From positions 140,014 through 204,013 of the forward strand of contig PQXF01000001.1 of NCBI GenBank assembly GCA_003194445.1: DNA of 64,000 nt, written 5' to 3'. Of this stretch, positions 18,888-46,462 are shown piece after piece (positions within the stretch are counted from its first letter, which is position 1; every line of letters starts with the position of its first letter). Source of the stretch: Candidatus Methanogaster sp. (GTDB lineage: Archaea > Halobacteriota > Methanosarcinia > Methanosarcinales > Methanogasteraceae). The notes under the pieces are model-generated. The model was given only the letters and a program-made list of their open reading frames with translations. It made no database searches and was not told the DNA's origin. A program made the translations under genes and the position numbers.

Positions 18888-19252
18888 CTTCAAGTAAATC
18901 CTCCTATCGGGTCTTGAGATGTGGTCGGGAAATGCCCCCACTCCCCCCACATCTCATGATGATAATAGTTATTGTGCTCATAGCATATAAACTTGACGGT
19001 CACAGACTCAAGAGTAGGTACTCCGGATGTGCGTAGAACAGCAAAAGTTTTATGAGTTGGTCATATAGTTATATAAGACAGGAGACGCGCGATGAAATTG
19101 ACATCGAACATCGGCCAATCGGCAGCAGTGACAAGACCGCCGAGCAGCGCGTATGTTCAATGTTGCAGCTTAATCGCTCTTGTAGGCCCCATGCGAACAT
19201 TCGGGAAAGGAGGCGTGAAACTTTGGGTGGGGGTGGGCGGTTTGAGGAGCGG

Positions 19253-20161: not shown

Positions 20162-20547
20162 AGCGAATTGCAATCATTTTGGGGACGAGACCGGAACTGA
20201 TTAAGATGTCGCCGGTGATCCGGGAATGTGAAAAGCAGGGTTTGGATTACTTTATCCTGCACACAGGGCAGCATTATTCATATAGTATGGACCGGGTCTT
20301 CTTTGAGCAACTCGGACTTCCTGAAGCTATGTATAATTTGGATGTTGGGTCGGGAAAGCACGGAGGACAGACCGCAAGGATGCTTGCCGGAATCGAGAAG
20401 ATTTTAATCGAAGAAGCTCCCGAAGTTGTCAGGGAGGAATGGGACACGAACACGGTTCTTATAAGGGCGCGGGGCTGGAATCATCCGTTTGGCGATGGTA
20501 GGGTCGGAGCGCGGATTGTGGAGATTCCCAAAGGAGGTATGACATGA
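20158..20547 (+). pseudogene. wecB: UDP-N-acetylglucosamine 2-epimerase (WecB-type) remnant with a large internal in-frame deletion
   Basis: The N-terminal ~95 aa (MKRIAIILGTRPELIKMSPV...HTGQHYSYSMD...DTNTVL) is joined directly to the extreme C-terminus (NHPFGDGRVGARIVEI). It is 129 aa versus about 350-370 aa for the family. Confidence 0.7.
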
Positions 20548-21686: not shown

Positions 21687-22837
21687 CAGATATTCCGATT
21701 AAAATGAGCAGAGAACACCTGGCAACGTGCGTTATTGCGTACCCTGTTAGTAAAGCGTTTGCCACCCCTTTATCAAATACGGAAAAAATATTGCGTTCAT
21801 TCTCAGATGTTCGCGTTATCACCGGAACTATAGAGGATGCCAGAGTCGAAACGGATCTGTCAGGTGTCCGAACTTATGGGGTGCAACACAAAACGACGAC
21901 GAACGTATTTGTCTGGATTTTACGGTATCTGCTATTAGAGGTAAGGATATCTTTGATCATGGCGAAGGTAGCGCAAAAAGCGGATGTGTGCATATTCTTT
22001 ATGGAAGGGGGCGCTTTATTGCCCGTCTTGATCGCAAAGGTGCTGGGTAAAAAGACCATACGGGTGGTGCCGTCTTCTATTTTAAAAGAGACTGCCAAAT
22101 CCCACAAAATAAAACGCGTCGCGCTCCTGCCGCTAATCTGTCTGCAAACCATCGCTTATGCACTGTCAGATATGATCGTGCTTTACTCCCCGGATCTGAT
22201 CAAAGAATGGGGCTTGGAAAAACACAAAAATAAAATTTGTATTGCACACGAGCATTTTTTAGACTTTGATACACTCAAGATAAGGAAGGAATATAAAAAG
22301 AGGGATAATTTTGTCGGCTACATCGGGCGTCTGGATGAAGAGAAAGGTGCATTGAATTTCGTTAGAGCAATTCCGGAAATAATGAAAGAAAAAGACGATT
22401 TGGAATTCATAATAGGGGGGGATGGGTGGTTACGAGATGAAATCGAAAAATACATAAGAAAAGAAAATTTAGGCGATAAAGTGAAACTTACAGGATGGAT
22501 CCCTCATGGCGAAATTCCGGATTACTTGAATACGTTGAAATTGGTTGTTTTGCCGTCATACACCGAAGGACTGCCAAATCTCATGCTCGAGGCGATGGCG
22601 TATGGCACGCCGGTTCTTGCAACACCGGTTGGCTCGATACAAGATGTGATAAAAGACGGTGAAACCGGATTTATTATGCAGGACAATTCTCCAGAGTGCA
22701 TTGCAGAAAATGTGGTGCGGGCACTCGATCACCCGGATATGGAGTGTGTTATGGGGCGTGCTGAGGCACTGGTTGCGCAGACGTTTACATATAAAGCTGC
22801 TACAGAGAGGTATAAGGAAATAATAGGGGACATTTAA
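21683..22837 (+). CDS. GT4 (group 1) glycosyltransferase
   Basis: FVGYIGRLDEEKG...VVLPSYTEGLPNLMLEAMAYGTPVLATPVGSIQDVIKDGETGF. Confidence 0.8.
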   Translation: MTDIPIKMSREHLATCVIAYPVSKAFATPLSNTEKILRSFSDVRVITGTIEDARVETDLSGVRTYGVQHKTTTNVFVWILRYLLLEVRISLIMAKVAQKADVCIFFMEGGALLPVLIAKVLGKKTIRVVPSSILKETAKSHKIKRVALLPLICLQTIAYALSDMIVLYSPDLIKEWGLEKHKNKICIAHEHFLDFDTLKIRKEYKKRDNFVGYIGRLDEEKGALNFVRAIPEIMKEKDDLEFIIGGDGWLRDEIEKYIRKENLGDKVKLTGWIPHGEIPDYLNTLKLVVLPSYTEGLPNLMLEAMAYGTPVLATPVGSIQDVIKDGETGFIMQDNSPECIAENVVRALDHPDMECVMGRAEALVAQTFTYKAATERYKEIIGDI

Positions 22838-22847
22838 GGGGTTAAAA

Positions 22848-24941
22848 ATGATATGGAGGTACGGGCGCAATGGCTGGTTCGTGTCTATGCTATCGGTACT
22901 TGTTCTGGTAGACATCGCTGTTCTTTTAAATATCCCGGTCTTAAGGCAAATTCTTGGATTCATCTTTCTCGCGATCTTACCAGGAGCATTGATCCTCCGA
23001 ATTCTAAACCCAGGTAAGTCAGAACTTGTAGAGGAGATTGTGCTATCGGTTGGACTCAGCATCTCATTCCTGATGTTCTTTGGGCTGGTGATGAACAATA
23101 TAGCTCTCAGTCTTGGCTACCTGACCCCGTTATCCACGACTTCATTGTTGGTTTTGTTCAATATAATATTAATTATATTTATTATTGTGGGACATGGATT
23201 AAACAAAGATGTGGCATTTTCAATATCTACACTCGATTTAAAGAGATCGGAAAAGACGTTTTTGATCGTTCCAGTTTTATTTCCAGCGTTAAGCATATTT
23301 GGAATGCACATAATGAATACAACAAATAATAACCTGCTCCTGCTACTTCTTTTGCTTTTAATTCCATGCTATGTTGCTTTCGTCTGCACCTTCAACCGGG
23401 AATTTCCAGAGAGGCTTTACCCGGTTGTCATAATCTTGATCGCCACATCACTTTTGCTTATTTTCATGTTGAGATCTCCGCATATCTGCGGACACGATGT
23501 ACATACGGAATATGGCATTTTCTTCCGGACAACTCTTCGGAATCTGCACTGGAGCGTACTGGGACACTCTATACTCGATGCTTGTTTGAGTATCTCGTTG
23601 CTGCCCACCATATTCCAAACCATTATGGGCGTGGATGCACACGAGTACCTCTTCAAAGGTGTTTATGTCGCAGTATGCTCTTTTAGCCCATTGGTAATAT
23701 ATATAATATCAAAGGAATATGTTAATAATTTATATGCGTTCATAGCTTCTTTCTTCTTCATATCACAATCGGCTTTTTTGGTGACGGCAGGAAGCCCGCG
23801 CACGAATGTTGCAATATTCTTCGTTGCTCTAACGGTCATGGTTTTCTTAAGTAGCAAAATCGATCCGATCAAGAAAAAAATCCTGTTGATTGTTTTTTTG
23901 TTTTCCACGGTTGTATCGCACTATTCAACCACATACATATTCTTCTTCATAATACTTCTCGCATGGCTCGGAGCAGAAACGCTTTCAAAGAGATGCGTCT
24001 TTGAGAAACTCCTGAGTTTGAAACTTGTGTTGATATTCTTTGTCTTTATCTTCCTCTGGTACGCTCAGGTGACAGAAGGTGCGTTTGATGCAGGAGTTAC
24101 TTTCATCGGGGATACAATTAGCAATTTAAACAACTTTTTTATAGAGGAATCCAGAACACCGGAATTAAAGCAATTATTCGGTCAAGGACTCGAATATCCG
24201 ATACTGAACAGAGTGAACCTTGCTATTACATGGAGTACGTTTATTTTTATCGGCATAGGCGTCTACACAATATTCAAAAGATCCGAAGAGATGGGAGCTG
24301 CATCCAATAAAAAAACAAAATGTAACGTGGAATATCTATTAATGACATTAATATGTGTTGGGCTGCTGACGGCAATGGTCGTGCTTCCTTACATCTCGCA
24401 GGGATATGGAATCTACAGGTTGTACCTACTGACGATGGTTATCTTATCCGTATGTTTTGTTTTAGGTGGCATAACAATATCGAAACATCTGAAATTACAA
24501 GCTTGTCTGACCATATTGTTGGTATTGATACCTTATTTCCTGTTTGCGACCGGTGCGGTGCAGCAGATGTGCGGCGCACCGGTTATATACACCCTAAACT
24601 CCGAAGGAAAAGGATATGCTGTGGAATATCTTCATGACCATGAAAGTTGTGCTGCAAAATGGATCGCGGAAAGTAAAGGGCGGGATTTTCAGATTAACAC
24701 TACCGATTGGCACGGTAAACGGAAGTTGATAAGCCAGGGAGGGATCCCTCCGGAGCAGATTGGCTACGATAGTTTCCTGGAGCATAAGCAGATTGATGAA
24801 TATATCTATCTAAGCTATAATAATGTGGTCAATGGCAAATTTGAAGAAAAGAACGAATGGTATAACATGAGTGAGTTTTCAGATGCTTTTATTGGAAAAA
24901 GCCAGATATATAATAATAGCGGTTCAGAGATATGGGAATAA
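22848..24941 (+). CDS. Large polytopic membrane protein, candidate glycan polymerase/oligosaccharyltransferase-like (DUF2206-like by recollection)
   Basis: 697 aa, more than 12 hydrophobic helices followed by a soluble C-terminal domain. Sits inside the glycosyltransferase operon. AT-rich. Confidence 0.6.
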   Translation: MIWRYGRNGWFVSMLSVLVLVDIAVLLNIPVLRQILGFIFLAILPGALILRILNPGKSELVEEIVLSVGLSISFLMFFGLVMNNIALSLGYLTPLSTTSLLVLFNIILIIFIIVGHGLNKDVAFSISTLDLKRSEKTFLIVPVLFPALSIFGMHIMNTTNNNLLLLLLLLLIPCYVAFVCTFNREFPERLYPVVIILIATSLLLIFMLRSPHICGHDVHTEYGIFFRTTLRNLHWSVLGHSILDACLSISLLPTIFQTIMGVDAHEYLFKGVYVAVCSFSPLVIYIISKEYVNNLYAFIASFFFISQSAFLVTAGSPRTNVAIFFVALTVMVFLSSKIDPIKKKILLIVFLFSTVVSHYSTTYIFFFIILLAWLGAETLSKRCVFEKLLSLKLVLIFFVFIFLWYAQVTEGAFDAGVTFIGDTISNLNNFFIEESRTPELKQLFGQGLEYPILNRVNLAITWSTFIFIGIGVYTIFKRSEEMGAASNKKTKCNVEYLLMTLICVGLLTAMVVLPYISQGYGIYRLYLLTMVILSVCFVLGGITISKHLKLQACLTILLVLIPYFLFATGAVQQMCGAPVIYTLNSEGKGYAVEYLHDHESCAAKWIAESKGRDFQINTTDWHGKRKLISQGGIPPEQIGYDSFLEHKQIDEYIYLSYNNVVNGKFEEKNEWYNMSEFSDAFIGKSQIYNNSGSEIWE

Positions 24942-26155
24942 AAATAAATATGTGCATGTTATTCGAACTCCGGTATGACCCAAGGATGCTGGTGGTACCG
25001 CAGATCGGGGTCGTAAGTTACATAACCAACTTTGGTCATGATGTTACATGGGTTCTGCCATCTGAGGGGGCAAAAGAAGTTCGGAAGGAGACTCTTGGGG
25101 GCGTATCTGTTTTTGCAGTTCCGTATAGGTCAGGAAAAGGTCTTTTGGATTATGTCAATAAAACGGTGTATGCTCTTCGAAGGGCGCGCTTCGTGTCCGG
25201 TCTTTTTAAGCAAGAGCAGTACAACATGGTATTTGCAGGGGATTGCATCTTCGATGCACTACTGGCACTCTATATAAAGCGAAGATACAGCGTTCCTTTT
25301 GTTCTTGAACTGGGAAATCCGGTCGAACAGGATGGGGAATTTCACAAAGTTTATCATTCGAATCACAAACATCTCTGGCAGCTCATATCAAAGATCAATG
25401 TTTATCTTCTCATGCACGCACTTCGTGACGCGGATCTGGTCCTTCCGATAAGTAAATGGTTAAAAGAGGATTTTATTAAGAAAGGGATAGGGGCATCAAA
25501 GATACTGCCGCTTCCGGAAGGTATGGATGCGGACAGGTTTTCGGATGCGGATGGTGACGCTATACGAAGACAGTATAATTTAGACGGTTCGGGTGTTGTC
25601 GTATACGTGGGAACGATGGATAAGATGAGACATCTGGATACGTTGATTCATGCGACTTCAGAGGTGAAGAATCGCGGGAGAAGGGTGAAGCTATTGATGG
25701 TTGGCGATGGCGATGACAAAACCGATCTCGAAAGACTTGCATGCGAACTTGGTATCGGTGATGACGTGGTGTTCACAGGGCAGGTCTATTCCGATGAAGT
25801 CCCGAATTTTATTGCTGCGGCAGATGTTGGGGTATCGCCGGTTCCGCCGTTTGATTTTTACAAGTTCAGTTCACCAATTAAACTATTTGAATATACGGCG
25901 GTCAGAAAACCGGTTGTGGCAAATAAGGAGATACCGGAACATGATGAAGTTATCCGGAAGAGCGGCTGTGGTGTTCTGGTGCAGTTTACTGGTGAATCGT
26001 TTGCGGAGGGGATAATTAAATTGTTGGATGATCCTGAAATGGCAGAGGAGATGGGCAAGAAAGGATATAAGTGGGGTGTTACTAACAGATCTTATGAAAC
26101 GACGGCTCGTGGGGTGGAGAAGAGGTGTCTTGGACTTTTGAAGGATAGTATTTAA
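24932..26155 (+). CDS. GT4 (group 1) glycosyltransferase
   Basis: VVYVGTMDKMRHLDTL...LLMVGDGDD...VFTGQV...ADVGVSP......SSPIKLFEYTAVRKPVVAN. Confidence 0.8.
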   Translation: MGIKINMCMLFELRYDPRMLVVPQIGVVSYITNFGHDVTWVLPSEGAKEVRKETLGGVSVFAVPYRSGKGLLDYVNKTVYALRRARFVSGLFKQEQYNMVFAGDCIFDALLALYIKRRYSVPFVLELGNPVEQDGEFHKVYHSNHKHLWQLISKINVYLLMHALRDADLVLPISKWLKEDFIKKGIGASKILPLPEGMDADRFSDADGDAIRRQYNLDGSGVVVYVGTMDKMRHLDTLIHATSEVKNRGRRVKLLMVGDGDDKTDLERLACELGIGDDVVFTGQVYSDEVPNFIAAADVGVSPVPPFDFYKFSSPIKLFEYTAVRKPVVANKEIPEHDEVIRKSGCGVLVQFTGESFAEGIIKLLDDPEMAEEMGKKGYKWGVTNRSYETTARGVEKRCLGLLKDSI

Positions 26156-26178
26156 TAAAAAGACACGGAGACAAATCT

Positions 26179-27690
26179 ATGAGGTCAACAGACGAGAAAC
26201 ATGGGGCGGCATCGAACATGGTTACTTTTTACCATGATATCGAGCAAGATATCGATAGTGAAGCAGATCCCGGGGAATGCCGGAAGGTTGTAAAGGAATT
26301 TTTAGAATTAGAAAAGCGATACGATGTTCCTGCAACTTACAATATTGTAGGGCGGATATTTCAAGAACAGCCCGTCCTCATAGAGTGTATCCTCCGGGAA
26401 GGCCAGGAAGTGGCTTTTCACTCTTATAACCACCAATCCGACTGGCAACCCCCCTACTACTCCGATGAAATTGATCTGTGCAGAAAAGCTTCCCCAATAC
26501 CCTGTGGATACCGCTCTCCAAGGTCACAATGGGATCGAAACACATTAAAAACGCTCTGGGAAAGAGGATTTCTATGGAACGCCGAGTGTGATACACATAA
26601 AGAACCTTACTTCATCCATAACGGGTTGGTACGTTTGCCCATAGCTACCGACGACTGGCTCCTTCATACCAGGGACATGGATGTCGATGAGTGGGTCAAA
26701 CAATTCCCAGTGCTACTGAAGAGCAGACCTTACTTTGGTTTTGGTTCTCATGACTATATAATCAGTTTTGCGCCCAAAGATCGGCTTAAAGCGTGGGAAC
26801 GAGTGTTACAGATGGCGGTTGAAAACGAAGTACTCATGGTCACATTCTCTGAAGCAGCAGATCTATTTAGACGCGCGAAAGTTTCGCGATATTACAGTAG
26901 CACTGCAAAGGATTGGAATCGCGGTACAAAAACGCTTTACCGGACAAAGCGCTTTCAGGAACTGATTAGAGGTGAAGCCGAGAGACTGAACCAGCCGATT
27001 GTCGTTGATCTGGGTTCTGCCGGAGGGGCACTCTCGTTGCCACTACAAGATATTGCAAAGAAAATTTACTTGATAGACAATGCACCCGGTATGGTCGGAG
27101 AGGTCAGTTCAAACGGCCGCATCCGGGCGTGTCAGGGCGATGTCACGGAGTCCAACCTACCTGACAGGATATGCGATTTCGTGATCTGTGCCCGCATAAT
27201 CGAATACCTGTTCTGGCCAGATCGCCTTGCTGATGAGATCAAGCGAATCGGCAGGATCGGAGCTACCTATCTCGTAACCTTTCCAGCTTTTCGTGAAACT
27301 CTCCCGCCCCATGCGGGACCTGCGCCCGACAGGATAAGGCGATATTTCACGCCCGATGAGATCCGAAAGTGGGCAGACCGGATCGGTCCGGGCAGTCTCA
27401 TCGGCATCCAGTATGAGGTGGCAGAACCTGACAGCCCCGAAACAGAAGAACGCTACCGGGCAATCGAGAAGGATCAACCACCGAATGCATATCCGACGAA
27501 CTGGGTGTATATCGGGAGTATCGAGAACGATTCTACAACAAAACGCCATAAAAAGATTATTCCAGTGTCGGCTTTCGATTTCCGTTTTCCAAGCGATCGC
27601 TACGAACGTATCCGGACGTGTATGGATTTAGTGAAAAGACACTTTCCGAAACCGATCCTGCGACTTGGGAAGTGGGTTAAGGGCATATAA
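26179..27690 (+). CDS. Fusion protein: polysaccharide deacetylase (NodB-type) plus class I SAM methyltransferase
   Basis: The N-terminal half has NodB-like motifs (TFYHD, HSYNH, YRSPRS). The C-terminal half has MTase motif I (VVDLGSAGGALSLPL...IYLIDNAPGM). Confidence 0.65.
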   Translation: MRSTDEKHGAASNMVTFYHDIEQDIDSEADPGECRKVVKEFLELEKRYDVPATYNIVGRIFQEQPVLIECILREGQEVAFHSYNHQSDWQPPYYSDEIDLCRKASPIPCGYRSPRSQWDRNTLKTLWERGFLWNAECDTHKEPYFIHNGLVRLPIATDDWLLHTRDMDVDEWVKQFPVLLKSRPYFGFGSHDYIISFAPKDRLKAWERVLQMAVENEVLMVTFSEAADLFRRAKVSRYYSSTAKDWNRGTKTLYRTKRFQELIRGEAERLNQPIVVDLGSAGGALSLPLQDIAKKIYLIDNAPGMVGEVSSNGRIRACQGDVTESNLPDRICDFVICARIIEYLFWPDRLADEIKRIGRIGATYLVTFPAFRETLPPHAGPAPDRIRRYFTPDEIRKWADRIGPGSLIGIQYEVAEPDSPETEERYRAIEKDQPPNAYPTNWVYIGSIENDSTTKRHKKIIPVSAFDFRFPSDRYERIRTCMDLVKRHFPKPILRLGKWVKGI

Positions 27691-27719
27691 ATGGAATTAT
27701 GCAGTTTCAGAGATCAAAT

Positions 27720-29144
27720 TTATCTTCCCAATATCTGCTTAAACAATTGCAGATCGTCATCCGAAAATGCTCTCGTTAGATATAACACAAAACAATAGAG
27801 ACTTGCTGCTAAAATAATCACTAAAATTAAATTAAACTCCATGAATTGATAGATAACAACCCCCATAATCAGACTGGCGATCGAGGGTTTTATCAGTATC
27901 TTGCCTACCTGAAGTTTATAAAAGCTTTTTGAGATGATGCTGAAGAACAAGGCGATGAGAAGCGTTTCCGTTATTATCGTTGCTATCGCTGCCCCGACGT
28001 AACTGAAAGGTGGGATCAAAACCAAATTTAATATAATATTTACCAATGCGGCACAGCCTGCAATAGCAGCCATCCGGTTCTGTTTAGTAAGCGAGACCAG
28101 TACAAATGCCATGCAGAAGTATGAAAAAAATAACAGGACATCCCACGACAATATCTGAAGCGCAAGTATCGAAGGATGAAATTGTTGACCGTAAAAAAGA
28201 AGAATAAACCGATCTGCAAGCAGTGTCATCAGAACAACAATCGGCAACCCCAGGATAAATAGATACTTAAACGACTTTTCATAGACTGTTTTCAACGAAT
28301 CCGTAGAAGATGTGTAATAACCAGCCATTAATGGAAAAAGAGCATTCATGAATAGGTGTGGAATTGGTTTGAAACCTAAAACCAGATTATACGCGGCATT
28401 ATACCAGCCGACGACCGCATCTCCCTTCATCATCGAGAGCATTACGGTATCCATGCTTGTATATATCAAACCAAAGATTGATAACATGCCGATCGGCAGT
28501 GCAACCTTCATCGTACTCTTCCAAAACCCAAAATCCGGCTCCATCTTCGGCTTCACAAACCTCCTCGTGCATACAACAAAGCAAAATAATAAATCAAGAA
28601 TACTTGATAGTATAAAGACCAGTGCAAGTTCTATCAATCCATAACCCATGAACAGAACCAATAATCCCAGAGAGAGTCGTATCATGGCTGCGAAAATCGT
28701 GATACTTGCTTCATATTCCATCTTTTCAAAGACGCGGAAGGTCACTTTAAAGACATCAGAAAAAGACAGGATAAGCAGGTAAACGCCGAAAAGATATACG
28801 ACGTTCTTTGTGTCTGCCGGATAACCCAGCACATTAACTGCTATCACGATTGAAGTGAAGATTACAGGGAACAAAAATGCACGCATGAGCAGGACATTAC
28901 TCAGATACTTGCTTGCCTGTGATTTGTCTCTTGCAACGTCCCTGATCAGCAGCGTATTATACCCTAAATCCGAGAAGACGGCAAAGATCGACGTAAAAGC
29001 AAGCGCAAAGGAATATTTGCCGAAGATAACGTCCCCTGAACTCCGGGCGATGACGATGGCTAATGCAAGCGATAATATCGCGACTGCGAATTGGGCCGCG
29101 AATAGTGCTGCGGTGTTCTTAACTATCTTCTGTACGGTATTCAT
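27720..29144 (-). CDS. Wzx-like polysaccharide flippase (MOP superfamily)
   Basis: 474 aa, about 12-14 TM helices. The N-terminus (KNTAALFAAQFAVAILSLALAIVIARSSGDVIFGKYSFALAF) is typical of polysaccharide biosynthesis proteins. Confidence 0.75.
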   Translation of the reverse strand: MNTVQKIVKNTAALFAAQFAVAILSLALAIVIARSSGDVIFGKYSFALAFTSIFAVFSDLGYNTLLIRDVARDKSQASKYLSNVLLMRAFLFPVIFTSIVIAVNVLGYPADTKNVVYLFGVYLLILSFSDVFKVTFRVFEKMEYEASITIFAAMIRLSLGLLVLFMGYGLIELALVFILSSILDLLFCFVVCTRRFVKPKMEPDFGFWKSTMKVALPIGMLSIFGLIYTSMDTVMLSMMKGDAVVGWYNAAYNLVLGFKPIPHLFMNALFPLMAGYYTSSTDSLKTVYEKSFKYLFILGLPIVVLMTLLADRFILLFYGQQFHPSILALQILSWDVLLFFSYFCMAFVLVSLTKQNRMAAIAGCAALVNIILNLVLIPPFSYVGAAIATIITETLLIALFFSIISKSFYKLQVGKILIKPSIASLIMGVVIYQFMEFNLILVIILAASLYCFVLYLTRAFSDDDLQLFKQILGR

Positions 29145-29175
29145 CTACTCTTATCCGCGATAACCTCGAAATATT

Positions 29176-30102
29176 CTACACCGAAAACGACCTGATCGTC
29201 TCTTCGAGTCCATCTGTAAGAGCGTAAGATGGCTCATATCCGATAGACTTAGCCCGCGATATGTCGGCAAGCGAATGCCGCACATCCCCATCCCTTGGCT
29301 CCGCATGTAATATGCCCGGGTCGGTACCGGTGGCGGATGCTTCTATTACCGCTGCTGCAAGTTCATTCACACTCACCCGCGCACCGCTGCCGATGTTAAA
29401 CACTCCTGTCTTGCTGCTCCCTGCCGCAAGGATGTTTGCGCTGACAACATCCTTCACGAAGGTAAAATCTCGTGTCTGCTCTCCGTCCCCGCAGATCACG
29501 GGCGGTTTGCCATTCAGTACGCGCGTTATGAACTTCGGTATCACAGCCGCGTATTCAGAGGATGGATCCTGCTTTGGCCCGTACACGTTGAAATATCTTA
29601 AAGAGGCGGTCTTTAACCCATATATCTCGGCAAAGACCTTACAATAGTATTCACCAGCCAGTTTGGATACTGCATAAGGCGAGAGCGGGTCAGGTATCAT
29701 CCCTTCCTCTTTTGGAAGGACCGGGGTTTCGCCGTAGACTGATGAGGATGATGCATACACCACTTTCTTAACACCCTCCTGATCCGCTGCGATCAAGACG
29801 TTTAATGTTCCGCTTATGTTCACTTCATTCGTCTTTGCAGGGTCTTTTATCGAGCGGGGTACTGACGGGATCGCTGCCTGATGAAACACGTAATCGACGC
29901 CATCAAAAACCTGTTTGAGTAAGTTTAAGTCGGTTATACTACCTTCCACATATCTGTAATTCTCGTTATCGAGCAAATCTTCGTTATTTTCCGGTCTGCC
30001 GGTAGAGAGATCGTCGATAACCGTGACTTCATCCACTTCCACCAGTTCATGGGCGAGATTCGATCCGATGAATCCACAGCCGCCAGTGATTACAACATTC
30101 AT
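29176..30102 (-). CDS. NAD-dependent sugar-nucleotide epimerase/dehydratase (UDP-hexose 4-epimerase-like SDR)
   Basis: VVITGGCGFIGSNL Rossmann motif, ASSSSVYG, and the YAVSKLAGE catalytic YxxxK. Confidence 0.85.
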   Translation of the reverse strand: MNVVITGGCGFIGSNLAHELVEVDEVTVIDDLSTGRPENNEDLLDNENYRYVEGSITDLNLLKQVFDGVDYVFHQAAIPSVPRSIKDPAKTNEVNISGTLNVLIAADQEGVKKVVYASSSSVYGETPVLPKEEGMIPDPLSPYAVSKLAGEYYCKVFAEIYGLKTASLRYFNVYGPKQDPSSEYAAVIPKFITRVLNGKPPVICGDGEQTRDFTFVKDVVSANILAAGSSKTGVFNIGSGARVSVNELAAAVIEASATGTDPGILHAEPRDGDVRHSLADISRAKSIGYEPSYALTDGLEETIRSFSV

Positions 30103-37029: not shown

Positions 37030-38118
37030 ATGACCAAAGAATCCACAGAGGAACAGGTATTTTCAGAGGAATACATTGAAGACATAGAAGACGAGCTTGA
37101 ATGGGTCGAGGGGGATATTGAGGCAGAGGCTGAGCCCAGCGTGGCTGATGAGTACGAAACAGAAGCCGGGGAACTTGAAGACCATGATGAAGTCTCCAGC
37201 GATGAGCCCATAGCAGGCGAAGTTGATTTGGAGCCTCCGGAGTATGGTGAGGAAGGGGCACCGTCCGCCGTCGAAGCTGACCTTGAGTTAGAACCGATGG
37301 AAGGCTACGATGAGAGTATTTTGGAGATGAGCCGCGAGGAAGCCCAGACCGACGAAGCACGTATGTTGGACGCGTGGTACGCGGAGTTTGCCGATCCTAC
37401 GACTATTGCTTTGGCACGACAACAGCCCAGCATCAGCCAAACAACCGCCGAGGTCGTGATCGGTAAAGATGACCGTATTCAGGTTAATAACACCACTGCG
37501 TATCCATGGCGCACTATCTGCTCGCTGATAATGACAGCCAGGGATGGTAGTAGGTGGATCGGCACAGGTTGGCTTGTCGGTCCGCGTACGGTCATCACTG
37601 CAGGTCACTGCGTTTACATGCACCGTCATGGTGGTTGGGCCAAGAGTATCGAGGTGATCCCTGGGAGAAATGGATCGAGACGACCTTATGGGTCATGCAT
37701 TGCCACGAGTTTCCGCAGTGTGAAGGGCTGGACACGGAAAAAGAGGCGATCGCATGACTACGGCGCGATCATCCTACCGCGCAACTGTGCTTACGGCAAT
37801 CGACTCGGATACTTTGGTTATGCGAATCTGAGCCACTTTTCACTGCTTGGTCTTACTGTGAACCTCTCAGGGTATCCAGGCGACAAGCCCCGTGGAACAC
37901 AGTGGTGGCACGCACGTCGTATCAAGTGGGTTACATCGAGAAGACTCGTCTACAATATCGACACTGCTGGTGGACAGAGCGGTGCACCGGTATGGCGGTT
38001 GAGGAACGGCAAGCGCCATGTGGTTGGTATTCACACCAACGGTTCAGCGTCCGGAAACTCTGCCACACGCATTGCTAAGCCGGTCTTCAAGAACATCAAG
38101 AAGTGGAAGCATGTATAG
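37030..38118 (+). CDS. Trypsin-like (S1B, V8/Glu-specific-type) serine peptidase with a long acidic N-terminal extension
   Basis: Catalytic triad contexts are TAGHCV (His), HDYGAIIL (Asp) and GGQSGAPVW (Ser). The first ~110 aa are strongly D/E-rich and no signal peptide is visible. Confidence 0.75.
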   Translation: MTKESTEEQVFSEEYIEDIEDELEWVEGDIEAEAEPSVADEYETEAGELEDHDEVSSDEPIAGEVDLEPPEYGEEGAPSAVEADLELEPMEGYDESILEMSREEAQTDEARMLDAWYAEFADPTTIALARQQPSISQTTAEVVIGKDDRIQVNNTTAYPWRTICSLIMTARDGSRWIGTGWLVGPRTVITAGHCVYMHRHGGWAKSIEVIPGRNGSRRPYGSCIATSFRSVKGWTRKKRRSHDYGAIILPRNCAYGNRLGYFGYANLSHFSLLGLTVNLSGYPGDKPRGTQWWHARRIKWVTSRRLVYNIDTAGGQSGAPVWRLRNGKRHVVGIHTNGSASGNSATRIAKPVFKNIKKWKHV

Positions 38119-38429: not shown

Positions 38430-38780
38430 ATGTACAATAGTAAAAAAGTGATATTGATCATGTCAAGCATCATCATAGTAATTAGTGTATTGGCTTTACA
38501 AAATATGGTCAATTCGACAGACAAAGGAGCTATTGCAGGACAGGTAACAACAGTACAAGGTGAGCCAGTAGTCGACGCCAGTGTGATGATAACCGGCGAC
38601 AGTCCTGTTCATGAGGATATTGCTGCCCTGACGAATGAACAAGGTGAATACGGGTTTGATGATCTCGTACCGGGAGATTACGCCATTATGGTCAACGCGG
38701 AGAACTATGTTGTACAAACCCGGCATGCGCATGTAGAGGCAGGTCATATTACCCACCTTAATTTCTCGTTAACCATCTGA
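38430..38780 (+). CDS. Small secreted carboxypeptidase-regulatory-like (CarboxypepD_reg) domain protein
   Basis: N-terminal TM/signal, then GAIAGQVTTVQGEPVVDASVMI...TNEQGEYGFDDLVPGDYAIMVNAENY, the typical transthyretin-like fold pattern. Confidence 0.65.
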   Translation: MYNSKKVILIMSSIIIVISVLALQNMVNSTDKGAIAGQVTTVQGEPVVDASVMITGDSPVHEDIAALTNEQGEYGFDDLVPGDYAIMVNAENYVVQTRHAHVEAGHITHLNFSLTI

Positions 38781-38977: not shown

Positions 38978-39503
38978 TCGGTGTATATCAGTGGCACTGG
39001 TTACGATTTTTTCCAGAAAAAAAGAGATTTTGTAGCCTGTGAAACCAGCAATGCCGGGTTAAGGATCGTCAACCCGGGCGGAGATCCCCTGATCCGAACT
39101 CCCGGGCAGACCTTCTCCTTCACCCGACCATGCTATGCTTCACTTCGAGGTAACTCTTGAGACCATGCATCCCAAGTTCCCTGCCAATCCTGCTCTCGCG
39201 AGTACCTGCCAAACGGCGCATACTTCGGAGCGCCATGATACGTATCGATCCACACCGTTCCTGCCCGGATGTGGCTTGCAACCCTCTTTGTACGAGAAAC
39301 ATCCTCTGACCAGACCGCTCCGGCAAGCCCGTACCTTGTCGTTTGCGATCCCGATTCCATGTGATCAAATATCGTCGGCTCGACAAAGTAGCCAGCCTGG
39401 TCAAGACGTTTCCCACTGGTTACGAGTTCTGCGCCATCCTCGATGATCCGTCAGGATCGTCGAGTCCGTCCCCGATCACAAGCCGTCTCGTCTCTGCGAC
39501 CGT
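38978..39503 (-). pseudogene. Duplicated 3' fragment of the aldehyde dehydrogenase gene plus its downstream flank
   Basis: Aligns with 40740-41402 at high identity, including 143 bp past the stop codon. Two internal deletions correspond to about 41110-41188 and about 41288-41346 of the intact gene. The stop is at 39120-39122. Confidence 0.85.
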
Positions 39504-40123
39504 CATTTCTTTCGCAGTACATATCCCACAAGCAGAAGCAGCCCAATCGAGAACAGTGCTACCGTTGGAAGCTCGGGGATCGGGGGTTCGGGATCAGAAA
39601 CTTGTACACTATAATCTTCTACTTCGCCGTAGCCGATGGGGCCGTATGAGGGCGGTTCTGAGCCCTCTTTTAGAGAAACACGCATTCGTGTTGTTGTTGT
39701 CGACCCATTCGGAACAGTAATAGAAACTGTATGTGGTCCGCCAGTATAACTCCCATTTGCCACTACAAATTTTTCGTCCGTATCGTTGAAGTCTTCGTCC
39801 TGATTCCAATCAATCCAGGCTGTTATATAACAGGCAAAAGCGTCAGGATGAATCGTTACAGACAAATTGTATGAGACACCTCTACTTACTCTTGCGCTTA
39901 TATTTGTATAATTCCCATATCCATCGGTTTCTTTTCCGGTAGTTTCGTTTATCTCGGAAAAATTCACATTAGTAATCCATTCATACTTGGTATTACCATT
40001 AGAATCCGGATAAGCAGCTAATGCACTTGGCGCACACAGCACAAGTATCACTGCAACCAAAATGGAAAATCCCAAAGGCTTTATGTTACGGCTCCCTCTT
40101 CTATTTCGCACTTTTATATCCAT
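39503..40123 (-). CDS. GEVED-domain secreted protein with PEF-CTERM-type sorting signal (putative archaeosortase substrate)
   Basis: Signal peptide MDIKVRNRRGSRNIKPLGFSILVAVILVLCAPSALA and GYGEVEDYSVQV (GEVED motif). The C-terminus is PEPPIPELPTVALFSIGLLLLVGYVLRKK: a PE(F/L)P motif, a TM helix and a basic tail. Confidence 0.7.
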   Translation of the reverse strand: MDIKVRNRRGSRNIKPLGFSILVAVILVLCAPSALAAYPDSNGNTKYEWITNVNFSEINETTGKETDGYGNYTNISARVSRGVSYNLSVTIHPDAFACYITAWIDWNQDEDFNDTDEKFVVANGSYTGGPHTVSITVPNGSTTTTRMRVSLKEGSEPPSYGPIGYGEVEDYSVQVSDPEPPIPELPTVALFSIGLLLLVGYVLRKK

Positions 40124-40382
40124 ATTTACCACCCTTTTTGCTTTATCTTCGCCCACGTATACCCCATTTATGATTGGTAGCAGGGACATACGAGTATGCT
40201 ACAATGTCTCTTCGTTGTACCACCTATAAAAGCTTTTCGGTTTTTTTTGGGGCTGTCACAGTATATGGCGTTTAAGTCATATCTTCATCGGTGGTGCGAT
40301 TGGATAAGCCCAGATATAATATGAAATCTCTTGAATGAATCTCGCTCTTGGGCAAATAACATTTAACCTGTGTCCATCTGGG

Positions 40383-40440
40383 AAATCTGTGGCTGATAAA
40401 AGCTTTTAGCCACAGATTAACACTGATTACACAGATTTTA
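40383..40440 (+). repeat. Hairpin repeat family 2 copy
   Basis: AAATCTGTGGCTGATAAAAGCTTTTAGCCACAGATTAACACTGATTACACAGATTTTA. Confidence 0.75.
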
Positions 40441-40882
40441 TCTACAACTTACTTGAACATACTCATGGAATCGTATGTAGCACCAGATGGCGTGACAATC
40501 TCGGTTTTTTACGATTGTAAAAACGTTAAAGATACTCTCCGCACGAAATTACGCTATTCCGGTTTTATTCTACTATCAACACAAAAGATGGACCGTTGAG
40601 GATCTATCGAGAGAAGAATGCGGAAGAGGCGAGTCCGATAATGATTTATCAGTGCAAGATTGACGAAAATGTAAAAAGATTCGAAGAGAAGTTCTGAACG
40701 CGAAAAGTGTACGCGATCTTATGAGCCTTGTACCAGTCATCGGCGTATATCAGTGGCACTGGTTATGATTTTTTCAGAAAAAAGAGATTTTGTAGCCTGT
40801 GAAACCCACAATGCCGGGTTAAGTTGGGCTGTCAACCCGGGCGGGGACCCCCTGATCCGAACTCCCGGGAAGACCTTCTCCT

Positions 40883-42289
40883 TCACCCGACCATGATATG
40901 CTTCACTTCGAGGTAACCCTTGAGACCATGCATCCCAAGCTCCCTGCCAATCCCGCTCTCGCGATACCCGCCAAACGGCGCATACTTCGGAGCGCCATGA
41001 TACGTATTAATCCACACCGTTCCTGCCCGGATGTGGCTTGCAACCCTCTTTGCACGAGAAACATCCTCTGACCAGACCGCTCCGGCAAGCCCGTACCTTG
41101 TATCGTTCGCGATCTCGATAGCTTCCGCCTCATCGCTGTACGTCAGCACAGACAGCACCGGTCCGAATATCTCCTCTTGTGCGATACGCGATCCCGATTC
41201 CACGTGATCAAATATCGTCGGCTCGACAAAGTAGCCAGCCCGGTCGAGACGTTTTCCACCGGTTACGAGTTCTGCACCATCCTCGATCCCGTATCTGATG
41301 TATCTCAAGTCTTTTTCCATCTGCTCGGGACTTATCACAGGTCCCATGTCAGGATCGTCGAGTCCGTCCCCGATCACAAGCCGTCCCGTCTCTGCGACCA
41401 TCAGTTCCATGAACCGATCGTGGATGCTCTCTGGTAGAAGCAGCCTCGAACCCGCGGTGCATACCTGCCCCGCGTTAAAAAACATCGCAAAGACGGCACC
41501 CTTCACCGCCTTTCCTATATCTGCGTCACCGAGGATTATGTTTGCGGATTTCCCACCGCATTCGAGCGTTATCTTCTTGAGATTCCCTGACGCATCTCTC
41601 ATGACCTCTTTTCCGGTCTCAGTTCCCCCGGTAAACGCAATCTTGTCGACCTTTGCGCTTCCCGCAAGTTCTGCCCCGGCAACGCTCCCCTGTCCAGTGA
41701 TCACGTTTACCACACCTTTCGGGCATCCTGCCCTGCTAAATATCTCGCCAAGTTCGAGCGCTGTTAGAGGGGTCTGGCTTGATGGCTTGAGTATGATCGT
41801 ATCTCCCGCGGCAAGTGCTGGCGCAACCTTCCATGACGCCATCTTAAGCGGCAGGTTCCACGGGACGATCCCTGCAGCAACTCCGGCTGGCTCGTAGTAG
41901 ACGGTGCTCTGGGCGCCAAGTTCCTCGACAAGCGGCTCTGTGAAACCCGCGTAATACTCGAAGAAGTCTGCCACGTCAGGGACGAACCGCGTTGCCCAGC
42001 CAATCGGCATTCCGTTATCCAGCGTTTCAAGGCGTGCGAGTCGATCCGCGTCCTTGCGGAGGAGTTCTGCTGCTTTCAGGAGGACGATCTTCCGGAGTGT
42101 GTGGTTCCAGCTCCAGTCGGTGTTGTCGAACGCGTCACGCGCTGCATCGATCGCTTTTCTGGCATCCACGCGTCCACCGTCTGCGACGGTTGCGATTCTC
42201 TCTTCTGTCGCCGGGTTAGTTACTGAGATTGTATTTTTAGACTCCGGTTCAGTCCATTCGCCGTTGATCCAAAGTTTGTATTGTTTCAT
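40883..42289 (-). CDS. NAD(P)-dependent aldehyde dehydrogenase
   Basis: 468 aa. Catalytic Glu (LECGGKSANII) and Cys (FFNAGQVCTAGSRLL) motifs and the GSVAG NAD-binding region are present. Confidence 0.9.
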   Translation of the reverse strand: MKQYKLWINGEWTEPESKNTISVTNPATEERIATVADGGRVDARKAIDAARDAFDNTDWSWNHTLRKIVLLKAAELLRKDADRLARLETLDNGMPIGWATRFVPDVADFFEYYAGFTEPLVEELGAQSTVYYEPAGVAAGIVPWNLPLKMASWKVAPALAAGDTIILKPSSQTPLTALELGEIFSRAGCPKGVVNVITGQGSVAGAELAGSAKVDKIAFTGGTETGKEVMRDASGNLKKITLECGGKSANIILGDADIGKAVKGAVFAMFFNAGQVCTAGSRLLLPESIHDRFMELMVAETGRLVIGDGLDDPDMGPVISPEQMEKDLRYIRYGIEDGAELVTGGKRLDRAGYFVEPTIFDHVESGSRIAQEEIFGPVLSVLTYSDEAEAIEIANDTRYGLAGAVWSEDVSRAKRVASHIRAGTVWINTYHGAPKYAPFGGYRESGIGRELGMHGLKGYLEVKHIMVG

Positions 42290-42522
42290 GATTGCTTACT
42301 CTTTAACCAGTGACTTGTGATCCCATTGTACAAAAAATGTAACTACTCGGGTACCTAAACCACTGTCAGGGAACTTCACTATATATGCAGACTACCCTAT
42401 CCGGGACATGGGGCATACTGTAACCAAGAGTCTTTTTATTATTTTCTGGGAACGTCGGATTGTCTTACGCGACCCCAACTGTTAGAATGGAGCACTATCG
42501 ATCTGAAAATCCATTTACATCG

Positions 42523-42580
42523 TTAATCTGTGGCTAATACTGTTTTTTATCCACAGATTAACACCAATTTCACTGATTAC
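42523..42580 (+). repeat. Hairpin repeat family 2 copy
   Basis: TTAATCTGTGGCTAATACTGTTTTTTATCCACAGATTAACACCAATTTCACTGATTAC. Same orientation as the copy at 40383. Confidence 0.75.
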
Positions 42581-42703
42581 CCCCATCTAATCATATTTGT
42601 ATCTGCCTGATTGGCGTCACGTTTTCAACCGACCAGGACAAATTCAAAAGACCCACTATGTTTTTTACGCTTGAATGCGGTAGTGCGTAGCAGGACGGAG
42701 ACA

Positions 42704-43546
42704 TTAACCTTTTGCAAATCTCGGATAGCAGATGATCAGGATCGGAATCATGAATAACACGATGACGAGCAACCATCCCCACAAACCGAGATCCATGAGC
42801 TGGTATATGATGAGTTTTTCCTCTTTTTTGAACTCAAACATGTGTGGAAATGCCTCACTCAAAAATTCCTTCTCCATTTCGAGTACATTCTCATAAGATC
42901 CGGATAATGGGGCGAGTGCAGAAACCCGGATCATCGTAATGGTATTTGAGGTAAAACCCCTGTTCAGGTAGAGATACAGAACAACCCTTCGCTCTGTGAT
43001 TTTTCCCTTCGATTCCTTTACCACAACGAGTTTCTTGACGGAGATTGATTTATTTTCTTCTTCACTTTTCTTATATATAGAAAACTCTTCTTCCCAGCCC
43101 ACATTCTGCATAGACACAGGTACCTTCTCCTTACCTTCCTCCTCTATCGTGTATCCAAGGCTAGGATAACAGACGATTGGCGGATGGAAACTTGAACGAT
43201 TGTCCGATTGGATGATGAGGAAGAATAAGGGTTGATACGATTCAGGATTGGTATATGCACGCATAAGCATGACGTCTGCATCCAATCCAGATGCACGATT
43301 AGCAGTATTGTAATTAGATCCCCTCCAATGACCTATCTCTATTGGAAATTCATTCATACAGTCATCGCTTCCGAGATCCATCCTTGTTCGAACCGTCATT
43401 GCGTCTCTTGATGCGCGTGCAAGTTCGGTGTCGATCGCGGTGGCGGATTTGGAAAAGAGCATGGACTGATTCGAAAAGAGCATGACAATTACTAATGTAA
43501 GCACCAGAAGTCCAATGATCGGGGCATATTCTTTAAAGAAGTTCAT
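42704..43546 (-). CDS. EpsI-family (exosortase-associated) protein
   Basis: N-terminal TM, then FPIEIGHWRGS....LDADVMLMRAYTN....PLFFLIIQSDNRSSFHPPIVCYPSLGYTI matches the EpsI signature (W.G, Y, H.P..C...G). There is an extra C-terminal TM. AAGGAGG lies 6 nt before the ATG at 43546. Confidence 0.7.
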   Translation of the reverse strand: MNFFKEYAPIIGLLVLTLVIVMLFSNQSMLFSKSATAIDTELARASRDAMTVRTRMDLGSDDCMNEFPIEIGHWRGSNYNTANRASGLDADVMLMRAYTNPESYQPLFFLIIQSDNRSSFHPPIVCYPSLGYTIEEEGKEKVPVSMQNVGWEEEFSIYKKSEEENKSISVKKLVVVKESKGKITERRVVLYLYLNRGFTSNTITMIRVSALAPLSGSYENVLEMEKEFLSEAFPHMFEFKKEEKLIIYQLMDLGLWGWLLVIVLFMIPILIICYPRFAKG

Positions 43547-44363
43547 TCTGTCCTCCTTTTTCCCCAATCCTGCATTTCATTAATTTACTGATGATTATCA
43601 GGGATATAAATGCGATGATAAATAAAAAAGGGCTGGAAAAATCATGGAATAACCTCATTGCAACCTCCGCGCCATGATGATCCGCGATCAGGATTATGGC
43701 GGTGACTCTGATGATATTTGCAACGATTGCGACTGGAATCGTTATGCAGAAAAGAGCGGTTTTTGTTAGAAGTGGGCATTTTAATAGGTAAGCGAAAATG
43801 GCAGATACCGCCAGTAATGAGATGAGCGTATTCATCCCGCTGCAGGGCAGACCGATAGAGAATGAACAATCCGTGAGTTGGATTTCAGATCCTGTTTGTA
43901 TAACTGCGACTCCAAGCATTTCAAGAGTCAGCGCGGAATAGCGTGCTGATATCGATTGGAGGGTGACTGAGATAGCAGGCACCACCGGGATCGGGATTGC
44001 GAATATCAGGAATAGCACAGGGAATAGCAGCGATCTCATCATCTCTTTTCCATACAGATAAAGGATCAAGCCGCAGAGTACGAACAGAAAAGAGATCGCG
44101 GATAAGAAGGGGAAGATCATGATGGAGCCGATGATGTAGAGAATAATGCCGAATGTCAAGGGGATTATTCCGGGTTTGAAAGGATCAGTATCGCGCATGT
44201 CTTTATCTCTCACGCTTCTCCATGCGAAGAATAACGAGACGATCGGGATTAATACGCCGTGAGAATATACCTGGTCAGTGAACCATGTATTGGCAAGCCA
44301 GACGAATGTGCGAAGATACATGAGGGATAAGAGGGACACGAGCAGGATCGTGATCTTTTTCAT
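43533..44363 (-). CDS. Archaeosortase/exosortase-family transpeptidase
   Basis: W.TDQVYSHGVLIP N-terminal motif, catalytic Cys context IGLPCSGMNTLISL, conserved Arg in IVANIIRVTAI and a downstream His. 276 aa, polytopic. Confidence 0.8.
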   Translation of the reverse strand: MKKITILLVSLLSLMYLRTFVWLANTWFTDQVYSHGVLIPIVSLFFAWRSVRDKDMRDTDPFKPGIIPLTFGIILYIIGSIMIFPFLSAISFLFVLCGLILYLYGKEMMRSLLFPVLFLIFAIPIPVVPAISVTLQSISARYSALTLEMLGVAVIQTGSEIQLTDCSFSIGLPCSGMNTLISLLAVSAIFAYLLKCPLLTKTALFCITIPVAIVANIIRVTAIILIADHHGAEVAMRLFHDFSSPFLFIIAFISLIIISKLMKCRIGEKGGQNELL

Positions 44364-44553
44364 TGATGATTATTTATTTCTCCAGACCTTATAAGCATAT
44401 CCCACAAACGCGAGCAAGCCAACTGAAAAGGGGATCAATAAGCTCAGTTCAGGGGTCGGATGTTATTTCTCTGAATCATAAGCCTATCGTTCACAGGGCA
44501 TCACACCATAAGACGCGACAGCCCGATGCCATGGAGCCGTAAACATCTTTACC

Positions 44554-45555: not shown

Positions 45556-45716
45556 TAAGGCGCGGGGACAAACCATTCAATAGAAAATAGTATCCACTTC
45601 AAAGATCACGGTAATCAGAAGATAATAAAAAGTACCGAGGTTTGAGGAGCAGCCGAAGGGGAAAACCATTTAAACAAATCAATCCAGAAGGATCTTGTGA
45701 AAATTGTGGTGAGAAA

Positions 45717-46124
45717 ATGAAGACGAAGGACGTACGCTGGAAACAGCGATTTCAGAATTTTGAGAAAGCTTATGTGCGTTTGGAAGAAGCAATGGAGCTG
45801 GAAGAATTGACCGAACTTGAAAGAAATGGTTTGATTCAGCGTTTTGAGTTCACACTCGATCTTTCGTGGAAGGTGATGAAAGATTTTTTGGAAGAAAAAG
45901 GATTTGTTTTTAAACCTTCGCCCAAGGATACGTTGCGACTGGCACAACAGAGCGAATATATAACTTATGCGCAAGAGCTGATTGATGGATTGGATATAAG
46001 AAACGAGCTCTCACACGATTATAGCGGTGAAAAATTTGAACGTTCGGAGAAGAAATTAAGAGGAGAAACTTATGTTGCATTGAGAAAACTGCACCTCTTT
46101 TTTGTAAATGAAAAAAACAAATGA
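45717..46124 (+). CDS. HEPN-domain protein, HI0074 family (nucleotidyltransferase substrate-binding protein; toxin of HEPN/MNT pair)
   Basis: DVRWKQRFQNFEKAY..L......ELERNGLIQRFEFTLDLSWKVMKDFL...........DIRNELSHDY. Start set at the ATG at 45717. Confidence 0.75.
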   Translation: MKTKDVRWKQRFQNFEKAYVRLEEAMELEELTELERNGLIQRFEFTLDLSWKVMKDFLEEKGFVFKPSPKDTLRLAQQSEYITYAQELIDGLDIRNELSHDYSGEKFERSEKKLRGETYVALRKLHLFFVNEKNK

Positions 46125-46462
46125 TTATGCAGAATTATTCCATGAATAAAAAGGGAAAAAATTCTTTTGGACTTTTCGATAGGGATATGAAAACGTTGCA
46201 GGACATTTTTAAAAAATATCCTGATGTGAAAAACGTTTTTGTATTTGGGAGTCGGGCTAAGGGAACGTACAAACAAGGCAGTGATATTGATCTGGCAATA
46301 ATGAACGAAGGGGTGCAAGATACGTTTATCCGCAAGATGAAAAGCGATTTTGAAGACAGCAGCCTGCCTTATACAGTTGATCTGGTGAACTACCCCACAC
46401 TAAAACATCCCGAACTGAAAAATCATATTGATATGGTCGGGGTGCCTTTGTTCCAAAAATAA
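46121..46462 (+). CDS. Minimal nucleotidyltransferase (MNT, HI0073-like; antitoxin of HEPN/MNT pair)
   Basis: VFVFGSRAKGTYKQGSDIDLAIM (GS..G..SD.DL motif). ATGA overlap with the HEPN gene. Confidence 0.8.
   Translation: MIMQNYSMNKKGKNSFGLFDRDMKTLQDIFKKYPDVKNVFVFGSRAKGTYKQGSDIDLAIMNEGVQDTFIRKMKSDFEDSSLPYTVDLVNYPTLKHPELKNHIDMVGVPLFQK

Follow-up and report, generated by a model that had tools for sequence, protein, structure and literature searches.

Does an archaeon with no outer membrane carry a genuine bacterial exosortase system, or do its sortase-like genes belong to the archaeosortases? A 64-kb stretch of DNA from Candidatus Methanogaster (the window, meaning the whole stretch that was analysed) raises this question, since it encodes a sortase-like membrane enzyme, an overlapping EpsI-like gene and, 2.5 kb from the latter, a gene for a secreted GEVED-domain protein with a C-terminal sorting signal. 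The system of EpsH-type exosortases and PEP-CTERM substrates was described in 2006 as restricted to diderm bacteria with exopolysaccharide (EPS) genes and as having no members in Archaea (PMC1569441), and archaeal relatives were previously held to be distant archaeosortases. The analysis described below identifies the source as an archaeon of group 2c of the anaerobic methanotrophic archaea (ANME) with a two-gene operon composed of a bacterial-type exosortase of the EpsH family and EpsI. It is likely that these two proteins, along with substrates bearing a tail with the motif PEL, constitute an archaeal processing system in Methanogaster.

The host is archaeal, since the window also encodes a thermosome and a beta-RFA-P synthase and since the GEVED protein is 100% identical to the NCBI protein C4B59_00705 of Candidatus Methanogaster sp., encoded on a 244-kb contig of which the window covers 64 kb, a genus placed in the ANME-2 cluster of Methanosarcinales. 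Direct reading of the window located three open reading frames (ORFs), for the sortase, the EpsI-like protein and the GEVED protein, on the minus strand exactly where a first-pass annotation of the same DNA had placed them. The two genes of the operon are as follows.

43533..44363, minus strand: exosortase (EpsH family, XrtA-like, unnamed subfamily; PF09721, TIGR02602), 276 aa, a predicted polytopic membrane transpeptidase

42704..43546, minus strand: EpsI-family accessory protein (PF11984), 280 aa, with an N-terminal transmembrane helix, an EpsI domain and an extra C-terminal transmembrane helix

All of the motifs previously noted in the enzyme are present: YSHG at residues 33-36, PCSG with Cys174, and the conserved Arg219 within ANxxR. 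Cys174, Arg219 and His240 are conserved without exception in 22 homologues with identities down to 39%. Searches with hidden Markov models (HMMs) placed the enzyme above threshold for the Pfam family Exosortase_EpsH (PF09721; 182.4 bits against 25.7), for the superfamily signature TIGR04178 (61 bits against a cutoff of 23) and for the bacterial exosortase subfamily TIGR02602 (8TM_EpsH; 143.1 against 105.55). The scores for all named Xrt subfamilies fell below their cutoffs, the best two being XrtW (167 against 425) and XrtA (TIGR03109; 160 against 208), along with XrtD (146.7 against 400) and XrtV (133 against 313). The archaeosortase models failed as well, with 30.7 bits against 100 for ArtC and 26.9 against 150 for ArtF, and no other model of the ArtA-ArtG set was listed for the sortase at E <= 0.1. 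Because TIGR02602 was passed while ArtC, ArtF and the other Art models fail, these profile scores classify the enzyme as an exosortase of an unnamed subfamily and not as an archaeosortase, the label it had initially been given. Structural searches added little to this assignment: the AlphaFold2 model is an all-helical membrane protein (predicted local distance difference test score, pLDDT, 84) for which Foldseek returned only meaningless TRP-channel matches at E > 0.07, and searches of PDB sequences with the sortase profile and with EpsI gave no match.

The ORF listed for the second gene (42704-43567) begins at a TTG codon. Initiation at the ATG at 43546 yields a protein of 280 aa in agreement with an independent gene call, and with this start the overlap with the sortase stop is exactly the 14 nucleotides (nt) reported earlier. 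The EpsI signature, W.G ... HPP.VCY..GY, is present and aligns with bacterial EpsI. When the match was checked by HMM, it held for Pfam, where PF11984 (EpsI/DUF3485) was passed with 35.2 bits against a gathering score (GA) of 26.1, and did not hold for NCBIfam, where TIGR02914 gave 23.4 bits against 42.8. Assignments to PF11984 are also precomputed for the EpsI neighbours in two loci of a survey of relatives described below (L001 and L002). All 13 of the 13 EpsI members of the clade match EpsI models (best E-values 1e-7 to 2e-9), the window protein, which is the only one with scores shown, lying below every cutoff in that comparison. Profile-profile alignment (hhalign) with the EpsI neighbours of classical bacterial exosortases gave a probability of 99.2% and an E-value of 6.8e-20, with the FP..IG.W.G and HPP.VCY..GY motifs in register. 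Whereas diderm EpsI proteins are about 206 aa long and have the N-terminal helix only, archaeal and Dehalococcoidia EpsI proteins reach about 280-300 aa and have an extra C-terminal transmembrane helix (…IIFYPQI or ICYPRF, followed by basic residues). By these comparisons the window protein is a true but divergent EpsI with a predicted additional membrane helix at its C-terminus. EpsI had been viewed as an odd partner for this enzyme; as the enzyme is an EpsH-type exosortase, an EpsI partner is to be expected, and the oddity lies in the presence of a whole bacterial-type module in an archaeon. The unusual features are thus the archaeal host and the second membrane anchor of EpsI.

The candidate substrate and its signal map as follows.

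39503..40189, minus strand: secreted GEVED-domain protein (PF20009), 228 aa, with a C-terminal sorting signal; candidate substrate

39506..39586, minus strand: sorting signal PPIPELPTVALFSIGLLLLVGYVLRKK, composed of motif, transmembrane helix and basic cluster

The GEVED domain scores 68.8 bits on PF20009 (gathering score 24.4). The protein probably starts at Met23 (40123), which would give it a normal signal peptide (…LCAPSALA|AYP), and it ends in IPELPTVALFSIGLLLLVGYVLRKK. This tail had been described as PEF-CTERM-like with Leu in place of Phe. However, neither the window tail nor any of nine related tails matched the PEF-CTERM model (TIGR03024) at E <= 10; the sole related match of the window tail was to the PEP-CTERM model TIGR02595, with 8 bits against a cutoff of 16. 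Five of the nine related tails were listed for TIGR02595, at 11.6-17.5 bits, and four had no match at all, so that only one of the nine passes; a classical Omnitrophota tail used as a control scored 30.2 bits. The subfamily with which the sortase classifies is, correspondingly, one whose cognate signal differs from PEF-CTERM. The three-part architecture of exosortase substrates, a P-E motif, a transmembrane helix and a basic cluster at the extreme C-terminus of proteins with signal peptides, is nevertheless present, and products of genes just upstream of the sortase in related archaeal loci share this ending, as in …YPVPELSTLILFSTGLLALAGYV… and …APVPELPTFILFSTGLIALAGYVLLTKKR.

The extent of this signal family was determined in a census, an exhaustive search of 1.84 billion cluster representatives; a separate search of a large database with the tail alignment returned only fragments of <=78 aa, and the representative search is used instead. 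The census recovered 1130 cluster representatives at E <= 1e-3, of which 179 reach E <= 1e-10. Among the top 139 proteins, 134 contain P-x-P-E-[LAM]-x-[TSA], and in 133 of these 134 the motif lies <=40 residues from the C-terminus; the commonest forms are ELPT (73), ELST (30) and ELAT (13), and the census consensus reads [AY]P[VI]PEL[PSA]T[IVL][IV]L[FLM][SAG]xGLLxL[AV]GYVxx[RK][RK][RK]. The carriers have diverse and unrelated secreted domains, with right-handed beta-helix/NosD domains in 44 of 114 and, among the others, DUF2341, papain-like C1, C25 and C11 peptidases, S8, FG-GAP, Laminin_G_3, PKD and Big_1/TED; the loci add subtilases, lamin-tail domains and a family without annotation, about 230 aa long and containing …DPGYPVPEL. 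The Pfam PEP-CTERM model PF07589 matches only 2 of the 114 census proteins. Almost all of the census proteins are from metagenomes, the one named cluster being from a Methanosarcinales archaeon. When the profile was made from unrelated database proteins alone, the window tail reached 52.4 bits and classical PEP-CTERM tails <=12 bits, while a profile of the locus tails separates archaeal tails (44-66 bits) from those of Dehalococcoidia (33-36) and from classical PEP-CTERM tails (<=25). These scores indicate that the window tail, far above what chance would give, is a member of a large, well-conserved and unmodelled PEP-CTERM variant, and not of PEF-CTERM. A six-frame scan of the whole window (1857 fragments) found only two matches, the GEVED tail (48.3 bits) and a relic near the sortase start (30.3 bits).

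Two further observations concern the tails themselves (census proteins P0178-P0316 and matches P0121 and P0141). A conserved Cys lies two residues before the motif (C-A-P-[VI]-P-E-L) in 50 of 134 census tails. In NCBI or JGI records, some proteins with this type of tail bear the label 'LPXTG cell wall anchor'; one PEL-type tail passes the LPXTG model narrowly (17.7 against 15.9 bits), and the label is therefore probably a misannotation.

How far the system extends was addressed through its relatives. A large protein database contains 156 homologues of the sortase, the named ones belonging to ANME-1 (Methanophagaceae), Methanosarcinales and metagenome-assembled genomes of Methanomicrobia. A survey in which one genome per species was scanned returned 80 loci. 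One is that of Methanosarcinales B131_G9 from Guaymas (93% identity); other archaeal loci belong to GoM-Arc1/Candidatus Argoarchaeum, many Methanophagales, Methanospirareceae and Altiarchaeales, and bacterial loci to Dehalococcoidia (38-43% identity) and to Omnitrophota and Planctomycetes (33-39%). The clade is present in ANME-1, ANME-2, GoM-Arc1 and Dehalococcoidia. A rough neighbour-joining tree, not bootstrapped, pairs the main archaeal clade with Dehalococcoidia as sister groups and nests both inside the bacterial exosortases. A second archaeal pair of exosortase-EpsI loci, from Syntrophoarchaeum (L040) and Methanoperedenaceae GB37 (L046), branches apart, and in L046 the tail encoded by a neighbouring gene is of the classical VPEP type, CVPEPITLAMTTLGILGVLGF….

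Gene order ties the signal to this clade. EpsI lies immediately 3' of the sortase in 25 of the 27 related archaeal loci with enough sequence, and the same order is found in Omnitrophota and other bacteria. Of 30 related archaeal loci, 11 have a gene with the same signal immediately upstream of the sortase, ending <=150 nt from its start, and 18 have one within 5 kb; up to three signal genes are found within 10 kb. The proposal that enzyme, accessory protein and tagged protein act as one processing system, already made in the first-pass annotation, thus gains strong support from comparative data. Neighbouring tails have PLPELPT or PLPELSG in Dehalococcoidia and VPEPAT in Omnitrophota and Planctomycetes; the latter two groups keep the sortase-EpsI order and have classical PEP-CTERM genes nearby, and the diderm bacterial loci contain no signal match at >=30 bits. 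An additional gene recurs in the relatives.

L002 12156-12941, convergent: CPBP/Rce1-like intramembrane protease gene (PF02517); equivalent sites in L017-L021, L023, L026-L029, L031, L034, L039 and L046

This convergent gene directly follows EpsI in 11 of the 23 related loci from archaea, and a Dehalococcoidia locus has it as well; none was found in the diderm bacterial loci, and the 64-kb window contains no CPBP homologue.

The second match of the six-frame scan is located directly upstream of the sortase.

44373..44462, minus strand: relic of a second sorting signal, HPTPELSLLIPFSVGLLAFVGYAYKVWRNK, bounded by stops; 30 codons, its stop codon 6 nt before the sortase ATG

In-frame stops close the relic upstream. 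In L004, L005 and L007, whose sortases are 70-86% identical to that of the window, an intact substrate gene ends at its position, and in L006 only the 3' end of such a gene, tail included, is on the contig. L008, the relative at 93% identity, shares both this relic and the divergent beta-RFA-P synthase gene. Because the relic sits where relatives have an intact substrate gene, the sequence comparison indicates that a dedicated substrate gene upstream of the sortase was deleted in the lineage of the window.

The GEVED gene is bracketed by a duplication.

38978..39509: decayed duplicate of the 3' end of an aldehyde dehydrogenase gene, a direct repeat with 40740-41407; together the copies bracket the GEVED gene

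The direct repeats are about 530 nt long and comprise the repeat families D1-D4, D6 and D7, with 88-97% identity, small indels and deletions in the downstream copy. This decayed direct duplication suggests that the GEVED gene arrived by local insertion or duplication. The contig of an independent assembly (Logan, L084) breaks at these repeats. Orthologues with 74-76% identity have a near-identical tail with one residue different. After the close archaeal orthologues, the next relatives of the GEVED protein (among P0160-P0177) are Bacteroidota proteins that end in a sorting domain of the type IX secretion system (T9SS; PF18962); the sorting tag on this passenger domain therefore differs between the lineages. 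A 38-nt element able to form a hairpin, AATCTGTGGCT…AGCCACAGATT, occurs upstream of the GEVED gene (40384-40421) and again between the EpsI and dehydrogenase genes (42522-42559).

The data presented above have led us to propose a model whereby proteins with an N-terminal Sec signal peptide and a C-terminal [VI]-P-E-L-[PSA]-T motif, transmembrane helix (L..GLL.LAGYV) and basic residues would be exported and, through the C-terminal helix, stay anchored in the membrane. The exosortase would then recognise the PEL motif at the outer face of the membrane and, through a catalytic centre formed by Cys174, Arg219 and His240, remove the helix by cutting at or near PEL, so that the protein could be handed to a surface or matrix acceptor, possibly a lipid, a glycan or a polymer. 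EpsI, anchored at both ends, would assist in this process. The GEVED protein would be one substrate of the exosortase. The sequence data themselves establish the family memberships, the conservation of catalytic residues and gene order, the signal family with its extent, and the physical linkage of that signal to this sortase clade.

Several points weigh against this model. The sortase is under the XrtA cutoff, EpsI under that of TIGR02914 and the tail under that of PEP-CTERM. Cleavage, anchoring to an acceptor and the role of EpsI are modelled on XrtA/PEP-CTERM and ArtA/PGF-CTERM and would hold only as far as these analogies do. The GEVED protein is the sole intact substrate within the 64-kb window and its gene lies 2.5 kb off, behind an unrelated dehydrogenase gene; as it seems to have come by local duplication or insertion, its proximity to the sortase may be accidental. 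Finally, loss of the adjacent dedicated substrate could indicate that the system is decaying in this lineage.

Three other explanations were considered. The one contained in the first-pass annotation, that an ArtC-like archaeosortase handles a PEF-CTERM-like signal with Leu for Phe and has recruited a bacterial EpsI, draws on the IPEL at the start of the tail, superficially like IPEF, on the archaeal host and on reports of ArtC and PEF-CTERM proteins in other ANME-2 genomes (PMC5244752). It is contradicted by the HMM classification, in which the sortase fails ArtC and ArtF and passes TIGR02602 while the PEF-CTERM model matches neither the window tail nor its nine relatives, and the sortase clade nests among bacterial exosortases with PEP-CTERM-tailed neighbours; we consider this explanation extremely improbable. 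It is also unlikely that the tail is processed by another enzyme, either an intramembrane protease of the CPBP/Rce1 type or ArtA, or is never removed, the proximity of the genes being coincidental. The CPBP/Rce1-like gene that adjoins EpsI in 11 of 23 related loci would fit such a role, as would the Cys that precedes the motif in 50 of 134 census tails, given that Cys-containing C-terminal signals are known as substrates of CPBP-type sortases (10.1101/2023.06.07.544157), and the seeming insertion of the GEVED gene would account for its location. Yet a CPBP homologue is missing from the window and a Cys from the GEVED tail, and both the PE-containing motif and the tail architecture are of the exosortase-substrate type; moreover, signal genes stop only about 6 nt short of the exosortase start codon, and do so even in L004, L005 and L012, which lack CPBP.

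A third explanation takes the system to be the decaying leftover of a horizontally acquired cassette with no role in this genome. The dedicated upstream substrate is reduced to a relic of 30 codons both in the window and in L008, the CPBP partner of many relatives is missing, and only one intact tagged gene is present in 64 kb. Decay fits less well with intact sortase and EpsI ORFs that retain every invariant residue, with sortase proteins 93% identical between the window and L008 at about 94.5% identity of locus DNA, which is compatible with constraint, and with a GEVED tail nearly unchanged among orthologues whose bodies are only 74-76% identical. We therefore regard decay as very unlikely and favour the model of a bacterial-type exosortase that, with EpsI, acts on PEL-tagged proteins.

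The occurrence of a true EpsH-type exosortase with EpsI in archaea contradicts the founding rule that such systems belong only to diderm, EPS-producing bacteria (PMC1569441). What is new is that this pair is widespread in methane- and alkane-oxidising archaea and occurs also in Dehalococcoidia, and that its cognate signal has an altered motif that mostly escapes current Pfam and NCBIfam models. No description of the clade, of the long EpsI or of the signal was found in the literature on exosortase or PEP-CTERM with ANME or Dehalococcoidia. A 2017 review tabulates one "Exosortase, EpsH" domain match in each of two genome columns of its comparison table, and a 2023 preprint by Haft calls the archaeal homologues simply archaeosortases (10.1101/2023.06.07.544157). 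At least about a thousand protein clusters bear a PEL-type tag, and a signal profile would allow surface and matrix proteins to be listed directly from sequence for uncultured ANME consortia, in which cell-to-cell contact is central to the lifestyle and hard to study by experiment. It also raises the question of which acceptor serves an exosortase in a cell without an outer membrane. More tentatively, ANME-1, ANME-2, GoM-Arc1, other alkane-oxidising archaea and Dehalococcoidia may have in common an exosortase system adapted to a single membrane and spread by inter-domain transfer, which would consist of the PEL-CTERM signal, an EpsH-type exosortase, a doubly anchored EpsI and often a protease of the CPBP/Rce1 type, and would attach beta-helix, protease and adhesin-like proteins that form the protein component of the surface or intercellular matrix in syntrophic consortia oxidising methane and alkanes; taken as a whole, this wider picture is possible and somewhat doubtful.

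Other genes of the window have a looser relation to the operon. A glycan cluster at 19052-30102 encodes glycosyltransferases, a flippase, an epimerase and related enzymes. The processing system had been described as lying next to this glycan island, but the near end of the cluster is some 9 kb away from the GEVED gene and some 12.6 kb from EpsI, and L002, the sole related archaeal locus inspected for gene content, lacks one, so that no conserved link is seen. Just past the GEVED gene, the plus strand encodes a trypsin-like serine protease whose N-terminal region, some 100 aa long, is very acidic (37030-38118), and a small secreted CarboxypepD_reg-domain protein (38430-38780), both without a sorting signal. 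Two small overlapping genes at 45642-46462 (plus strand) encode a nucleotidyltransferase substrate-binding (HEPN-like) protein (PF08780) and, by eye, a minimal nucleotidyltransferase (GS…D.D motif), a pair resembling those of toxin-antitoxin type.

The Methanogaster operon can be compared with five known systems. Archaeosortase C and PEF-CTERM occur in the Methanosarcinales/ANME-2 lineage, and their motif also opens with P-E, but the window sortase scores 30.7 against the ArtC cutoff of 100 and the PEF-CTERM model misses the tails. Archaeosortase A and PGF-CTERM of Haloferax volcanii share with the window system the superfamily (TIGR04178 passed) and an archaeal host, and removal of a C-terminal helix from surface proteins in the ArtA system makes it the best experimental guide to events in a cell that lacks an outer membrane (PMC6098224). 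The two differ in subfamily, no ArtA match being listed at E <= 0.1 for the window sortase, and in signal. We know of no EpsI partner described for ArtA.

Among the bacterial systems, XrtJ/PExPT-CTERM (TIGR04199/TIGR04200) has a P-E-x-P-T pattern that fits PELPT, and one related tail weakly matches its target model (13.8 bits). Identity with this system was rejected, as the sortase scores 18.2 against the XrtJ cutoff of 200 and the target cutoff of 40 is not reached; the likeness is at the level of the motif only. The XrtE fusion (VPEID-CTERM, TIGR04162) is a precedent for an exosortase paired with a second protease, comparable to the CPBP/Rce1-like gene beside EpsI in the relatives. The fusion partner of XrtE is CPBP-like. 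In the relatives, in contrast, the protease is a separate, convergent gene that is absent from the window, and the window sortase scores 22.7 against the XrtE cutoff of 150.

Finally, the XrtA/EpsH-EpsI system, with its prototype in Methylobacillus (PMC1569441), differs in that the window host is an archaeon without an outer membrane and its sortase is not within an EPS locus, so that the window system lacks both defining traits of the 2006 description, the outer membrane and the EPS-gene setting. The motif of the window clade is PEL[PSA]T, not PEP, its helix is much more conserved (GLL.LAGYV), the window system falls under the XrtA, TIGR02914 and TIGR02595 cutoffs, and its EpsI has the extra C-terminal transmembrane helix. 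The likenesses are those of family, arrangement and signal: both systems have an enzyme of the TIGR02602 family, a sortase gene followed by EpsI, and a three-part C-terminal signal with an invariant P-E on diverse secreted substrates.

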